Below, one piece after another: positions 25,187 to 30,451 of a stretch of DNA of 30,451 bases. How positions within the stretch are numbered: the stretch's first letter is position 1; each line of letters opens with the position of its first letter. The notes beneath the pieces were generated by a model. That model saw only the letters and a list, made by a program, of their open reading frames with translations, made no database searches and was not told the DNA's origin. Made by a program: the position numbers and the translations under genes. Source of the stretch: a virus (taxonomy: Duplodnaviria; Heunggongvirae; Uroviricota; Caudoviricetes); IMG/VR virus record IMGVR_UViG_2728369554_000010, positions 1-30,451 of that record, one strand, 5' to 3'.

Positions 25187-26213
25187 AAAGAAAAAATACC
25201 CCGTGTTACACGATGGCGTGGCAAAAAAAACAGCCAGCAAAATGACTTTTATTGAATTTGGTGACCCGGAACCGGTCGCAGCATGGGGCTGTTATTACGG
25301 CTCGCTCTGGGATGGCTATAACGGCTGGTACACACCGCCCATTGAGCGCATGGATCTCGCCATGTTGTCCAATATCGCACCGTATCACGGCGCGGTATTG
25401 CGTGCGCGCGTCAATATGATCATGCAGGGTTTTCGGGGTGGTGGTGGTATGACACACGCCGCCATGGCGGCAGCAGTAACCAATCTGCTGATATTCGGGG
25501 ATATGGGGTTGCTTAAAGTGCGCAATGGCTTCGGTCGAGTGGTGCGCCTGCATACGTTACCTTCTCTGTACCTGCGGCGTAACAACGAGGGTGGCACGGT
25601 GATTGTGCAGGCGGCACTGGAAGATCTCGTTTACCCGCCAGGCGAAGTAGTGTTCGTGGCCATTTATGACCCGCAACAGCAGGTTTACGGTGTCCCGGAT
25701 TATATTCACGGGATGGAATCTGCCATGCTGAATGTGGATGCCACCCGCTTTCGCCGCAAGTATTACAAGAACGGCGCACATCTTGGTTATATCCTGTATT
25801 CCACTGACCCGGACATGGATCCCGAGCTCGAGGCGGAATTCCGTAAAAAGATAGAGGCGTCAAAAGGGGCGGGCAATTTTAAATCCATGTTTATCAATAT
25901 ACCTGGCGGAGACAAAGAAGGCGTTAAGGTGATCCCTATCGGAGATTCAGGTACAAAAGATGAGTTCCTGAATATAAAAACTATCAGTGCCCAGGATCAG
26001 CTCGTTGCGCACCGTTTTCCACCCGGGCTTGCCGGCATCATTCCCGCAAATACGGCCGGGCTTGGTGACCCACTGAAATCCCGCGAGGCATATTACAGGG
26101 ATGAGGTTATCCCGATGCGCCGCCTGATTATGGAGGGGATCAACAGCGACCCGGATATCAGACGACTGGGGGAGGTGAAATTTATTCTTGATTTTGATGA
26201 ACCCATGGAGTGA
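25179..26213 (+). CDS. Q: Portal protein, gpQ-like
   Basis: 344 aa starting MSKKKK; FRRKYYKNGAHLGYILY and GAGNFKSMFINIPGG parallel P2 gpQ as I recall it. Confidence 0.85.
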   Translation: MSKKKKYPVLHDGVAKKTASKMTFIEFGDPEPVAAWGCYYGSLWDGYNGWYTPPIERMDLAMLSNIAPYHGAVLRARVNMIMQGFRGGGGMTHAAMAAAVTNLLIFGDMGLLKVRNGFGRVVRLHTLPSLYLRRNNEGGTVIVQAALEDLVYPPGEVVFVAIYDPQQQVYGVPDYIHGMESAMLNVDATRFRRKYYKNGAHLGYILYSTDPDMDPELEAEFRKKIEASKGAGNFKSMFINIPGGDKEGVKVIPIGDSGTKDEFLNIKTISAQDQLVAHRFPPGLAGIIPANTAGLGDPLKSREAYYRDEVIPMRRLIMEGINSDPDIRRLGEVKFILDFDEPME

Positions 26214-26278
26214 TGTGCGGTATGGGGAAAGAGCGGGTAAAATCGGTGGCAGTAAAACGCTGTTCCGGGAGGTGGAAA

Positions 26279-26536
26279 ATGCGCAGACAGAAAGCGCGAT
26301 GTCATTGCTGCGGTGCACATGCAGTGATTGAGAAAACAGCCTGGAAAACCGATCAGTTTGCTGATGTGTATTACCGTTGCACCCGTCTCGAGTGCGGACA
26401 TACCTGGGTGATGAATCTGACCTACTCGCACACACTGGTGCCCAGCGGGCTGGAGAATGGTGTGTTAAAGCTGTTGATTGAGCGGATGCGTCCGGAAGAA
26501 AAACAAATGGCTCTGGAGTTGTTGCAGGCCGGATAG
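26279..26536 (+). CDS. ogr: Ogr/Delta-family zinc-finger late-gene transcriptional activator
   Basis: ORF 26210-26536; preferred start MRRQKARCHCCG at about 26279 with GGAGG 6 nt upstream; C-x2-C...C-x4-C zinc finger (RCHCCGAH...YRCTRLECGHTW); about 85 aa. Confidence 0.7.
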   Translation: MRRQKARCHCCGAHAVIEKTAWKTDQFADVYYRCTRLECGHTWVMNLTYSHTLVPSGLENGVLKLLIERMRPEEKQMALELLQAG

Positions 26537-26555: not shown

Positions 26556-26607
26556 CAACCCGGAACGGGCGCACAAAGAATTTGCGCACCCGTTCCGGGT
26601 TTTCTTA
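26556..26607. terminator. Long hairpin (AACCCGGAACGGG...CCCGTTCCGGGTT) with T-run between convergent ogr and rrf2-like genes
   Basis: About 13-bp near-perfect stem with nested inner stem, followed by TTTTCTTATT on the plus strand. Confidence 0.5.
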
Positions 26608-26964
26608 TTCAATGGCAGACAACTGATAATTTGTGTCTTCCTGCAGGCTGGTTAAAGAAATATTATCCAGTGCAGCCAGAATAACGTGCTGTGTATATAA
26701 TCCGGAACATTTCATTGCCCGGACAATATCACCAACACTGTAATTTTCTTTTGTCGGGATATATCCACCACCCGGGCCGCGTGTGGCTTTTACCAGGCTA
26801 CTTTCCCGTAAATATCTGAATATTTGCTCCAGATATGACAGTGAAACGGTTTCTTTGCTTAATTGCCGGAGCGAGATTGGCTTTCCGGTGTACTGTTTCA
26901 CAAATTTAATCATTACCATAACTGCAACTGATGCACGCTGGCTTCCGGAATTATCTTTCATCAT
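26605..26964 (-). CDS. Rrf2-family winged-helix transcriptional regulator (short form, no Fe-S cysteine cluster)
   Basis: ORF 26605-27030; preferred start MMKDNS at about 26964 with GGAAG upstream; VSLSYLEQIFRYLRESSLVKATRGPGGGY matches the Rrf2/IscR recognition-helix signature; about 119 aa. Confidence 0.6.
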   Translation of the reverse strand: MMKDNSGSQRASVAVMVMIKFVKQYTGKPISLRQLSKETVSLSYLEQIFRYLRESSLVKATRGPGGGYIPTKENYSVGDIVRAMKCSGLYTQHVILAALDNISLTSLQEDTNYQLSAIE

Positions 26965-26975
26965 GATTACTTCCA

Positions 26976-27263
26976 TTAATGGCATAAATTGATGGAGCGG
27001 GTCAGTGAATAAAGAGGCAATACATTCCATCCCTTAGAGCGCCAGCTGTCTGCAACATCTTTACTTCTTGTTATCGCCGGTATTCCAATAGGATTATTTG
27101 CGTGCATCCATGCCACTGGCTCTGCTTCCAGTGATGCAAGTGCGATTTCCAGTGCGATTAACATATTGTGATCGTCTTCATCAAGACCGAACGGGATGTC
27201 TTCGCGCCACGATTTAAACTCTGTGATTTTACGTTGTAACCATTCTTTGGTAATGGTGGACAT
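26976..27263 (-). CDS. Hypothetical protein (95 aa) in the par operon
   Basis: ORF 26976-27281; preferred start MSTITKEWLQ at about 27263 with AGGAG 5 nt upstream; 14 nt downstream of the parR-like stop. Confidence 0.4.
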   Translation of the reverse strand: MSTITKEWLQRKITEFKSWREDIPFGLDEDDHNMLIALEIALASLEAEPVAWMHANNPIGIPAITRSKDVADSWRSKGWNVLPLYSLTRSINLCH

Positions 27264-27277
27264 AGTTACTCCTGTTT

Positions 27278-27592
27278 TCACTTCGGGAAAAACGCCTGAA
27301 TATTCTTTTTCACCTGCTGCATATGGGGGGCGCTGTCTGCTGCTGGTTGCGCCGGTTTTTCAGGCTGTACTGGTAGCGGTGGCATCCGTATTTCGTCTTC
27401 TGACCATTCTGCCAGCGAATACGCCAACGCGGGGGTGCGTTTTATAAGAGCCAGTCCGGCCAGAAAAGCCGCGCGTTGTGCGCGGCTGCGTTCGGAGGCT
27501 GGCAGGCTGTCGAGGTAACTGCACGCCTCCCGTTCGCTCTTGACGACGGCGGGCTTCAGATAGAAACTTATCCGTCTGGTTGGTGTCGTCAT
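27278..27592 (-). CDS. parR: ParR-like centromere-binding partition protein
   Basis: ORF 27278-27721; preferred start MTTPTRR at about 27592 with AGGAG inside the parM 3' end; ISFYLKPAVVKSEREACSYLDSLPASERSRAQRAAFLAGLALIKRTP parallels plasmid R1 ParR as I recall it. Confidence 0.6.
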   Translation of the reverse strand: MTTPTRRISFYLKPAVVKSEREACSYLDSLPASERSRAQRAAFLAGLALIKRTPALAYSLAEWSEDEIRMPPLPVQPEKPAQPAADSAPHMQQVKKNIQAFFPK

Positions 27593-27596
27593 TGAT

Positions 27597-28556
27597 TTAC
27601 TCCTTGTCCATTGCGTACAGCCCATTAACCAGAGCAAACTGTGGCACCCCGTCCGCGATGAAAGTCGCATTAACTCCGCAGGCTTCGCGGATAGCGGGTG
27701 CCACAATCTCTGCCCCTCCACCTACAACCATCACCCGCCCGTAACCCGAAAAACCCGCCAGCGCGCGGATCACGCGTTGTTTCAGTGTTTCTTCCTTTTC
27801 ACGAATAACAGCCATCAGGCTGGCGTAATGTGCGTTATTGTGGATGTGCTGGCGCAGCCAGGCTTCATCGTGGCGATGTTCGATAATGGTATTGGCGATG
27901 TGGTGACTGGTGCGCATACCGTTAGTGGCCATTACCGACAGTACGGCATCGGCCATCAGGGAAACGCCTACGTGTGGATCGCAAAACACCTGGCTGATAC
28001 CTGCCAGTTGCCCCTGAACCTTTGCCACATCCAGCGTGGTTCCGCCCAAATCCACAATCAGCAGGGATTCAAACGGACTCATGTCAGCCAGTGCTTTAAA
28101 GCCAGCCGGAATGGATTCAGGCATAACCCGCACGTTACGGATAGTGAATGCCTCGCCGTTCTGGTACTCCACCGGGCGCATAACGTTCGCTTTTTTGCGG
28201 TTGATGTTGGCCATGTCCGGCTGTGCGTTTGTGTCGAAATACTCGCTCAGTGGCAGGGTGACAACCACATCCACCTCCTGTGGCGTGATGCCTGATTTGA
28301 CCAGCGCATGATGAATGGCAATGACATTCACATCGCTGTACTGGTATTGCGTGTCGGTCGTCTGGACAAAGCGATCGCTGACCGGATCAAAACCATAGCG
28401 CACGCCATCAAGCATGTAGTTCGCGGGCTGCGTGCCACCGAACGGCGCAGACCATTCTGACTTGAAGCTGTTCGGGCTGATGGCGTTGCGGCGTTCGCCG
28501 TTCTCAGTCCATGCCAGCTTGATGTTGGTGGATCCGTCGTCGATACAAATTTTCAT
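27597..28556 (-). CDS. parM: ParM/StbA-family actin-like plasmid segregation ATPase
   Basis: 319 aa; MKICIDDGSTNIKLAW...ISPNSFKSEW...YQYSDVNVIAIHHAL...LLIVDLGGTTLD...VMVVGGGAE parallels plasmid R1 ParM along its length (from memory). Confidence 0.8.
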   Translation of the reverse strand: MKICIDDGSTNIKLAWTENGERRNAISPNSFKSEWSAPFGGTQPANYMLDGVRYGFDPVSDRFVQTTDTQYQYSDVNVIAIHHALVKSGITPQEVDVVVTLPLSEYFDTNAQPDMANINRKKANVMRPVEYQNGEAFTIRNVRVMPESIPAGFKALADMSPFESLLIVDLGGTTLDVAKVQGQLAGISQVFCDPHVGVSLMADAVLSVMATNGMRTSHHIANTIIEHRHDEAWLRQHIHNNAHYASLMAVIREKEETLKQRVIRALAGFSGYGRVMVVGGGAEIVAPAIREACGVNATFIADGVPQFALVNGLYAMDKE

Positions 28557-28574
28557 GTCGCTTTTCCTTATGTT

Positions 28575-28700
28575 GATTAATTAATCGGTTACAGGATTTT
28601 TAAATCCCGTTTTCGCCTGTTTTGTGCGCGCTTCATATATCACGGCGCGTTTTTTGCTCATTTACGGGATTTGTGAATCCTGTTTTTGTCTGTTTTTTGT
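28575..28700. repeat. Centromere/operator-like repeats upstream of parM: GATTAATTAATC palindrome plus two about 38-bp direct repeats each with GGATTT-N3-AATCC
   Basis: Palindrome about 20 bp upstream of parM ATG; repeats TTACAGGATTTTTAAATCCCGTTTTCGCCTGTTTTGTG and TTACGGGATTTGTGAATCCTGTTTTTGTCTGTTTTTTGT about 73 bp apart, the second inside the 3' end of gene A. Confidence 0.4.
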
Positions 28701-30451
28701 TTCCACTGGTCAGGCCACCCCGCAGCAGGTCTGCTTTGCGGCGGGCGCGTTCAGTTGTTTCACTGATTCTCTGTGCGTGCTCTGCGTCACGGATGGCGCG
28801 CAGCATGTCAGAAAGCACGGTAACGGGGGTTTTCATGGTGTTCTGGTCCTGCTGAAGTGTGGATGCCAGGCGTGCGGCGGCTTCGGGGTCTGATGCCCCC
28901 AGCTGTTCCAGATAGCTGGCGACCGGGTTATGGCGGATCCCCGTGCTGCTTACGCCGTGATTACGGCTCAGGCGCTGCCAGAGCTGCGTGATTCGGCTGT
29001 CCGGGCTGGTATCCGGTTTGCGTACAATTTCAAATCCCTGCGGTGCAATGATGCTGCCGTCAACGTACAGGCTGCCGCCCCGTAACAGGTGCTGCATCTG
29101 CTGTTCACCGATATGCAGGCCGAGAGATTCAGCAGACTCCCGCCATTCTTTAGCGAGTAACTCGTGGTTATCAGGCAAAGGCTGTGGCTGTTTGCGGCTC
29201 TGTGTCCAGTTCTGCATTTCATCACTGCTGTTTTTTGCCTGTTTGTCACGCAGCGAACGCATCAGCGCCCGGCGTTCGTGCCGTTTCAGTGAGCGCATCC
29301 ATTCATTCACGTCAACGCTGTCAGGAAGCTGCGGCCACGGTGCTGGCCGTTCTTCCGGCTGTTCTGTCCCGTTGTTGTCCGTTTCCTGTACACGGGGACA
29401 GTTATTGCCACGAGTCCAAGGGGCGGCAGGGCCGCCCTGAAGGTCAAAACCATTTTCGCGGGCGCTGTCTTCCGTTTCCGGTTTACGTCTTACCAGCTTC
29501 CAGTTATCCGGATGCGTGCACACACGGGAGGATTCCCCGATGAGTGGCGACCAGATCCCGTAAATCTGTACGCTCTGTTCGCCGTAATCGTTCAGCTCAT
29601 CTGCGAGGTCGTAGGCGGTGCGAATCAGGTAGTCTTTGCGTGGAACAAGAACGCCGCCCTGTTTCTCTATGTAGGTGGCAAAACATCCGGCATCAGCGGC
29701 AGCAAGAACCGCATCCATTGCGTCATCCTTCAGCCGTTGCGGGCCTTCCGGGTTGCGTGCCATCTGGCTGGCAAGGCGGCGCAGTTCACGCCACACCTGA
29801 CGGGAGGGGATGNNNNNNNNNNNNNNNNNNNNNNNNNNNNNNNNNNNNNNNNNNGTGAAGGCGCGCCCAGCCGATAGCGCGCTCCACGCTCTCGGCCATT
29901 GATTTTCCGGTTTCATGGTCAACGCGTGGCTTGCCCGTTTTTGGGTCGATACCATCCACGGCGCGGCTGCTCAGGTTTTTTCCGATGTAGGTGGCGATGT
30001 AGCTGGTTGGCGTGCCTTTTGAGCCGTCGACGTACTCCGCTTTAAAACGCGGAGTTATGTCATCGCCCAGCTCGTGGCGGTCTTCCTGAATGGCAATATC
30101 GCGGGTGATGGCCACGATGCTGTCGATTTCTTCCGGATGAGCAAAGACCATCATATGCCAGTGCACAGTGCCGTCATGGTGAGGCTCCACCGTGCGGATG
30201 CCATACCAACGAAGGCCGTCGCGGTTCAGTTTTTTGCGGACCGCTGCAAAAAACGTGTTAACCAGGTAATCGCTGGAGTCGCGCATGGTGGCCCCGTTCC
30301 ATTTGGGATTCGGATGACCGTTCTCTGTTGTGGCATGGTATTTTGACGGGCAGGTGACAGTCAGAAACACCGCTCTGTCGCCACGGGCTTCGGCCAGAAG
30401 TTCCAGCCCCTTCATGGTGGCCATCATTTCTGCCTTACGGTGAACCGGGTT
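28633..30451 (-). CDS. A: Replication initiator gpA-like (rolling-circle, HUH-type), 5'-truncated by window edge and split by a gap
   Basis: Two ORF-track pieces (28633-29955, 29786-30427) in different frames across the N run; reading frame stays open to position 30451; contains GTVHWHMMVFA HUH-like motif. Confidence 0.65.
29813..29854. other. Assembly gap (42 N) inside gene A
   Basis: Run of N in the sequence; flanking A fragments are in different frames, so the true gap length is unknown. Confidence 0.95.

Follow-up and report, generated by a model that had tools for sequence, protein, structure and literature searches.

A palindromic repeat region upstream of parMR in a P88-like prophage is a candidate ParR-binding centromere

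The window, as we call here the whole stretch of 30,451 bases that was analyzed, belongs to a P88-like prophage (Xuanwuvirus, Peduoviridae, P2-family), and its positions 27200-29200 are 94-96% identical to P88 and to other Xuanwuvirus phages. The genes around the repeats described here are all encoded by the minus strand, in the order gene A, parM and parR (Table 1). The stop codon of the replication gene A (TGA, 28635-28633) is followed by a gap of 76 nt before parM. The parMR cassette is found in a variable region (hotspot) located downstream of gene A, and it contains the last ~22 codons and the stop codon of this gene. Inside gene A there is also a run of 41 N (29814-29854), either masked or unresolved, that splits the ORF call. 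Between the portal gene and parR the hotspot carries three more ORFs, at 26210-26536 on the plus strand and at 26605-27030 and 26976-27281 on the minus strand. This cargo consists of an Ogr/Delta-like zinc-finger gene (Pfam, 1.4e-12) with a start that overlaps the portal stop codon, a gene for a Rrf2/IscR-like regulator (3.9e-13) and a 101-aa ORF of unknown function (phrog_660), none of them present at the corresponding position in P88. A search for a defence role with PADLOC gave no matches for ParM, ParR or these three neighbouring genes. The P2 cos 19-mer was absent from the window.

Upstream of parM, across the end of gene A, there is a pair of 38-nt direct repeats. An earlier note, made from the sequence of the window, had claimed two direct repeats of about 38 bp spaced about 73 bp apart, and this was borne out, with 31 of 38 positions matching (82%) and a start-to-start spacing of 73 bp. 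When the sequence was shuffled preserving the dinucleotides, the best 38-nt match did not go beyond 25/38 for the 501 nt of 28400-28900 (300 shuffles) or 24/38 for the A-rich 164-nt core, 28557-28720 (1000 shuffles). Repeat 2 covers about codons -22 to -10 of gene A, so that its location inside the end of the gene is also correct. Each of the repeats does contain an inverted motif, as had been described, although the form given for it (GGATTT-N3-AATCC) was slightly off and the motif is really a 20-bp imperfect palindrome. Its consensus over 218 related loci is ACGGGATT-N4-AATCCCGT, and the two copies of the window, S1 in repeat 2 and S2 in repeat 1, have one mismatch per arm pair. A third site, S3, corresponds to the perfect palindrome that had been noticed near the parM start; GATTAATTAATC is indeed there, 18 nt upstream of the parM ATG (28556) and 5 nt upstream of the AAGGA Shine-Dalgarno. 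The distance from centre to centre is 73 bp between S1 and S2, about seven helical turns, and 20 bp between S2 and S3. All three sites share the core GATT-N4-AATC, which appears exactly three times in the 30,451 bases, always within the 105 bp of 28575-28679, against a chance expectation of 0.54. The repeats and the palindromes are real and far beyond chance.

Besides these sites, a short G+C dyad (CGCGC...GCGCG, within 28626-28650) brackets the stop codon of gene A and is followed on the plus strand by TTTTTTG. Together with S1 and S2 it makes a series of three successive hairpin-plus-T-run motifs on that strand.

Table 1. Genes and sites around the repeats upstream of parM, in coordinates of the window.
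Feature	Position	Strand	Description
Replication gene A, 3' part	28633..30451	-	P88-type, about 940 aa in P88; runs off the window at 30451
Repeat 2	28662..28699	-	Promoter-distal block of the candidate parC; 38 nt, 82% identical to repeat 1
Site S1	28664..28683	.	20-bp palindrome in repeat 2; minus strand ACAGGATTCACAAATCCCGT; population consensus ACGGGATTCACAAATCCCGT
Spacer between repeats	28627..28661	-	35 bp; holds the gene A stop codon (28633-28635) and a short G+C dyad
Repeat 1	28589..28626	-	parM-proximal block of the candidate parC; wholly intergenic
Site S2	28591..28610	.	20-bp palindrome in repeat 1; minus strand ACGGGATTTAAAAATCCTGT
Site S3	28575..28586	.	Perfect palindrome GATTAATTAATC; has the GATT-N4-AATC core as in S1 and S2
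Whole A-rich region	28571..28698	-	Putative 11-bp register of 5 units, 18-bp core and 5 units; units degenerate
parM Shine-Dalgarno AAGGA	28565..28569	-	Read from the sequence
parM	27597..28556	-	Actin-like segregation ATPase, 319 aa
parR	27278..27592	-	Predicted ribbon-helix-helix centromere-binding adaptor, 104 aa

Judging by their sequences, the parM and parR genes of the window are genuine members of the R1 ParM/ParR (StbA/StbB) family. The ParM protein contains the Pfam domains StbA_N (1.8e-82) and ParM C-terminal (1.6e-68), is matched by phmmer over its full length (residues 2-316) to the R1 ParM structure 1mwk with an E value of 1.9e-92, and is ~46% identical to the IncF-type ParM. In the case of ParR, the match was to Plasmid_stab_B of Pfam (PF10784, 1.9e-24) and, marginally (E 0.009, residues 6-62), to the ribbon-helix-helix domain of the pB171 ParR/StbB structure 2jd3. 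We aligned 18 ParR sequences of the clade and found that residues 5-14 (TRRISFYLKP) are invariant, the linker is hypervariable and the C-terminal NIxAFFPE is conserved. This arrangement matches the known plan of ParR, in which a linker joins a ribbon that binds DNA to a tail that binds ParM (PMC5016525). The AlphaFold2 monomer of ParR, a model of low confidence (mean pLDDT 66.6), would have helices at residues 20-61 and 89-101 with disorder at 62-88, the ribbon not being modelled in the monomer; comparing this model with the PDB by Foldseek retrieved nothing meaningful.

The annotation of ParM and ParR in public records of P88-like phages is already known. The literature that we searched, on the other hand, gave no description of a parC or any other cis site for P88 or Xuanwuvirus.

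Between the window and P88 the identity is only 57% for ParR, while for ParM it is 99.7%. Among its E. coli relatives the ParR alleles have identities of 46-93%, most of the variation being in the linker. This hypervariability beside a near-invariant ParM may come from mosaic recombination or from diversifying selection. Despite the range of ParR identity, the arms of the sites are the same in every ParR allele type, and no covariation was found between the allele type (window-type, P88-type and a third type) and the variants of the sites. Such a lack of covariation would be expected if the invariant ribbon sets the specificity, and we do not take it as evidence for binding.

In order to know whether the repeats go with gene A or with parMR, the gene contexts of ~230 related loci from IMG/VR were compared, and three of them had different genes upstream of parM. 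The first (L045) has an A gene of 783 aa and then, upstream of parM, a separate zinc-finger-like ORF of 155 aa; the second (L153) has a divergent A gene of 773 aa and, after it, ORFs of 159 and 73 aa. These two loci belong to other P2-like lineages. In both of them nucleotide homology to the window sets in with the first bases of repeat 2 (28697/28698), and the foreign ORF upstream runs into the cassette to end at the same TGA. The third (L117) has 2.7 kb of unrelated genes in the opposite orientation between gene A and parM; here the homology begins at 28613 and only S2 and S3 are kept. In one more variant (L081) exactly one 73-bp unit has been lost and repeat 2 is fused to repeat 1, so that gene A ends in ...KTGFKNPVTD*. 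Altogether, the repeats were co-inherited with parMR in four gene contexts.

The comparison was also run in the opposite sense, looking for repeats without parMR in P2 and 186, as the earlier note had proposed. The 3' ends of gene A in these two phages have neither such repeats nor the GATT-N4-AATC core, that is, the repeats are not conserved there in the absence of parMR, and their A proteins lack the C-terminal extension of the P88-type A. All of the 79 IMG/VR loci with the C-terminus of a P88-type A that reached far enough have the repeats and parM downstream. When the whole of IMG/VR was scanned for CGGGATT-N4-AATCCCG, paired sites came up in no other sequence context than the P88-type one, adjoining parM wherever the contig reached it, and the other 23 matches were single and in unrelated contigs. 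L287, a P88-like genome that is nearly complete, has no GATT-N4-AATC cores besides S2 and S3, and its int-C-cox control region is free of them. As for the origin of replication, the nick sites of ori are annotated at 29892 in P2 and at 28576 in 186, where the A gene stops 427 and 252 nt further on, respectively. The homologue of this nick region in the window is at about 29395-29450 on the minus strand, includes the invariant CAATAACTGT, and is ~0.7 kb away from repeat 2; this stretch is probably the rolling-circle origin.

The boundary of homology at the start of repeat 2, the distance to the origin and the lack of repeats in P2 and 186 tie the repeats to parMR rather than to gene A. From these sequence comparisons we conclude that they are inherited with parMR and not with gene A. 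The overlap with gene A would then be incidental, as whatever ORF lies upstream appears to run into the cassette and stop at the TGA that the cassette itself provides. The last ~22 codons of the P88-type A are supplied by the cassette, something that matters for the annotation and engineering of these phages.

An in-frame tail with the sequence ...KQT(K/E)TGFTNPVNEQKTR(R/S)DI* and the stop codon is common to three upstream ORFs: the 940-aa P88-type A (window 28633-28699), the 155-aa zinc-finger-like ORF (L045, 2457-2924) and the 73-aa ORF (L153, 6825-7046). The P88-type A, with 940 aa, has about the length of the 783-aa A and the 155-aa ORF of L045 put together. Regarding the one-repeat variants, at 2930-2975 in L081 and 530-600 in L117, both retain repeat 1 (in the second with homology from 28613, that is, S2 and S3); either S2 and S3 together may be enough as a minimal site, or these copies may be defective.

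With an identity threshold of 90%, the 221-bp region 28540-28760 is carried by 1285 of 5426 complete E. coli genomes (~24%), at 1415 places in all. Strains O157:H7, O104:H4, 55989 and O25b:H4 as well as ST131 genomes are among the carriers, some with up to three copies. The parM gene was intact in 216 of the 218 copies retrieved, and its polymorphic sites were 181 synonymous versus 108 nonsynonymous, indicating that the cassette is maintained and not decaying. Variation in the sites themselves was examined in the 80 distinct haplotypes of the 218 loci. The arms were polymorphic at 2 of 24 positions versus 20 of 113 for the others (Fisher p 0.36), a slight sparing that is not significant, and the relatives are too close for a test of constraint. 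In phages and plasmids, the ParM identities jump from at least 95% to at most 52%, and a scan of genome contigs gave only 3 close copies, with no centromere of intermediate divergence among these relatives. The most variable stretch is the spacer between the repeats, where 8 of 35 positions are polymorphic in more than 5% of the haplotypes. A symmetric double variant of S3, GGTTAATTAACC, was present in 21 of the 218 loci, with single-arm intermediates in 10 and 2 loci. This could be explained by selection for dyad symmetry or by template-switch mutation at the palindrome.

The earlier note expected a promoter/operator at the palindrome close to parM. This part of the proposal is weakly supported: the palindrome is located just upstream of the ribosome-binding site of parM, but the promoter scan detected no sigma-70-like site on the coding strand upstream of this gene. 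With relaxed settings the best match was AAAACA-16-AAAAAT (7/12), with its -10 inside S2. The orientation of parMR is that of the early operon cox...A, and the terminator scan gave no site on the sense (minus) strand in 28557-28720, nor any between gene A and parM. The shared orientation and the lack of a sense terminator after gene A make it likely that parMR is expressed by read-through.

Putting these data together, we propose that 28571-28699 is the cis-acting, parC-type centromere of a type II ParMRC cassette of the R1 family, to which ParR would bind. We give this reading a probability of roughly 0.6. Of the possibilities raised before for the repeats, the centromere is the one that the evidence, circumstantial and comparative, supports: R1-family ParM and ParR are encoded just downstream, the repeats travel with parMR, and the 130 bp upstream of the parM start contain two 38-nt repeats and three cores in an R1-like layout. 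ParR dimers would insert their N-terminal ribbon (TRRISFYLKP) into the arms of S1 and S2 and probably also into the core site S3, a weaker one. S1 and S2 being seven helical turns apart on DNA with phased A-tracts, the ParR dimers would all be loaded on the same side of the helix, much as they are on the split parC of R1. Clustered in this way, their C-terminal tails would capture the growing ends of ParM filaments, and the filaments would push the copies of DNA apart. Bound ParR would probably damp the expression of parMR as well, because S2 and S3 are immediately upstream of the ribosome-binding site of parM. It seems more likely that parMR is read through from the early transcript of gene A, in which case any such control would be exerted at a weak internal promoter or take the form of a roadblock. 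Against a centromere it must be said that the element is integrated in the chromosome at 1413 of the 1415 places, where a plasmid centromere has no obvious job. Other points against it are the small number of clear units (two long repeats and three palindromic cores), the lack of significant sparing of the arms, the missing sigma-70 promoter and the terminator-like pattern of S1 on the plus strand.

Other explanations can be given for the same sites. The protein that binds them might not be ParR but, for instance, a nucleoid protein of the host or some other regulator of the phage, or the sites might be recombination scars or hot spots at the edge of an exchangeable cassette, with no role in partition. 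The repeats are indeed recombinogenic, given that three independent junctions fall at their edges (28697/28698 and 28613) and that one variant has lost exactly one 73-bp unit, and the symmetric double changes of S3 could come from template switching at the palindrome instead of selection. Nevertheless, two palindromes that remain in helical phase in 1285 genomes are not what one would expect of a scar. No further copies of the sites occur in the phage genome, its immunity/control region included, and the sites stay the same while other hotspot genes differ between the window and P88. ParR is, besides, the only DNA-binding protein that always adjoins them. We consider this explanation unlikely.

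The palindromes could also work as intrinsic terminators or insulators on the plus strand, antisense to gene A and parM, stopping convergent read-through from the late P-Q or the ogr-like genes into gene A. S1 passes the plus-strand terminator scan (28664-28683, 8 pairs followed by TTTTGTCTGT), T-runs follow S2 and the G+C dyad of 28626-28650 on the same strand, and the folding of the plus-strand RNA has a z of -3.85. However, only one of the three sites (S1) passes the scan, S2 failing it, and five such sites in 1.8 kb compare with 2.4 expected. The stems are A+T-rich, with 3 G-C pairs, and S3, which has the core, has a stem of only 4 bp and no stable hairpin. The plus-strand transcript would have to cross first ~2 kb antisense to parR and parM. 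When variants compatible with wobble pairing were counted, the sense strand was favoured at S2 (52 vs 3) and the antisense strand at S1 (31 vs 2), so that no strand is consistently protected, and the T-runs are the complement of the A-tracts that would be expected in a ParR centromere such as that of R1. On these grounds a terminator or insulator is quite improbable.

A related possibility is that the repeats act as RNA in a gene A-parM co-transcript, through local hairpins or through pairing of the two copies over a distance, as a processing site or by affecting the stability of the parMR message or the translation of parM. No terminator intervenes between the two genes, the sense RNA of 28557-28720 folds with z = -2.97, the two copies of the repeat pair together, and the arm mismatches of S1 and S2 in the window are reciprocal, the left arm of S1 pairing perfectly with the right arm of S2. 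Yet this reciprocity is specific to the window, and no compensatory S1-S2 pattern was seen in the 80 haplotypes. The loop and spacer sequences are unpaired, Rfam gave no match for the repeat region, and the opposite strand preferences of the wobble-compatible variants at S1 and S2 count against an RNA role as well. Palindromic direct repeats will always fold in this way, and z-scores like these are expected from DNA repeats alone, which leaves a function as RNA very improbable. Finally, that the repeats are part of the rolling-circle origin used by the A protein, an option considered in the earlier note and suggested by the position of the P2 and 186 ori inside the last quarter of gene A, can be taken as largely refuted, since the nick-region homologue with CAATAACTGT is ~0.7 kb from repeat 2, the GATT-N4-AATC core does not appear at the 3' end of the P2 and 186 A genes, and the repeats adjoin unrelated ORFs in L045, L153 and L117.

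If the repeats are the centromere, a very common integrating prophage of E. coli keeps a plasmid segregation machine, and the candidate site makes it testable why, as it provides a concrete 130-bp fragment with three palindromes to mutate. A complete ParMRC machine, with a compact palindromic centromere, might be kept in the integrating prophage by purifying selection for a job other than plasmid inheritance. This is a speculative and rather unlikely idea. During lytic growth or before integration, the machine might serve to position or separate replication circles in monomeric form. Another possible job is to permit an episomal state, transient or occasional; the one complete circular "plasmid" copy of 34.5 kb can be compared here. 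It might also be an incompatibility weapon against incoming ParMRC plasmids and phage-plasmids, and in that case the hypervariable ParR next to a 99%-conserved ParM would reflect diversifying selection.

The circular copy, NZ_CP148288.1 (L287), was deposited as a non-mobilizable "plasmid" of an E. coli isolate, and is a complete 34,461-bp circular P88-like genome from the integrase to the tail genes, with parMR and the sites. It may be an excised replicating form or represent a true episomal state.

Among the known partition systems, par2 of pB171 and the system of pSK41 resemble the one predicted here in having a ParR that binds the centromere by a ribbon-helix-helix domain and contacts ParM by its C-terminal tail, and a repeat centromere upstream of the operon (PMC5016525). 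In these systems the centromere is an array of short repeats in tandem, uninterrupted in the case of pSK41, whereas the window has few clear units. Known centromeres of this type contain many direct iterons of 10-11 bp, and each iteron is bound by one ParR dimer. StbA/StbB of the phage-plasmid D6 provides the only other phage record with a relative of the ParM of the window (47.8% identity), and here too a ParR-like gene comes after parM and repeats are found upstream. D6 is, however, maintained as a plasmid, and its upstream region has dispersed repeats of the ATTCTCAAA type instead of GGGATT/AATCCC palindromes.

The closest comparison is with parC of R1, which is formed by ten direct iterons around a 39-bp core that holds the promoter (5 x 11 + 39 + 5 x 11; PMC2241845). 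We read the R1-type parC of an IncFII plasmid (L085) as five A-rich 11-bp iterons, a core and five more iterons, followed by CATAAGGAG and the parM start, in agreement with the published architecture (PMC2241845). Alignment of the nucleotide sequences of the site of the window and R1 parC revealed no homology, only a shared A-richness. The differences are several. R1 has ten clear 11-bp iterons and a 39-bp core, while the window has two 38-nt repeats, a 35-bp spacer and 20-bp palindromes plus a third core palindrome. The R1 core holds a promoter and the window has no convincing one, the upstream block of the window overlaps the end of an ORF, and R1 is a low-copy plasmid whereas the window is an integrating P2-like prophage. 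On the other hand, the protein families are the same, and in both the cis site is directly upstream of parM, A-rich on the coding strand, and made of two blocks around a short core, the second of which abuts a CATAAGGA ribosome-binding site. The A-rich region of the window can even be fitted to an 11-bp register, with an 18-bp core (GTGATATATGAAGCGCGC) that holds the stop codon of gene A and a second set of five units followed by CATAAGGAA and the parM start. These units are degenerate and none was reported by the repeat finder, the clear elements being the palindromes and not direct iterons, and as an analogy the 11-bp layout makes a suggestive parallel with the parC of R1.
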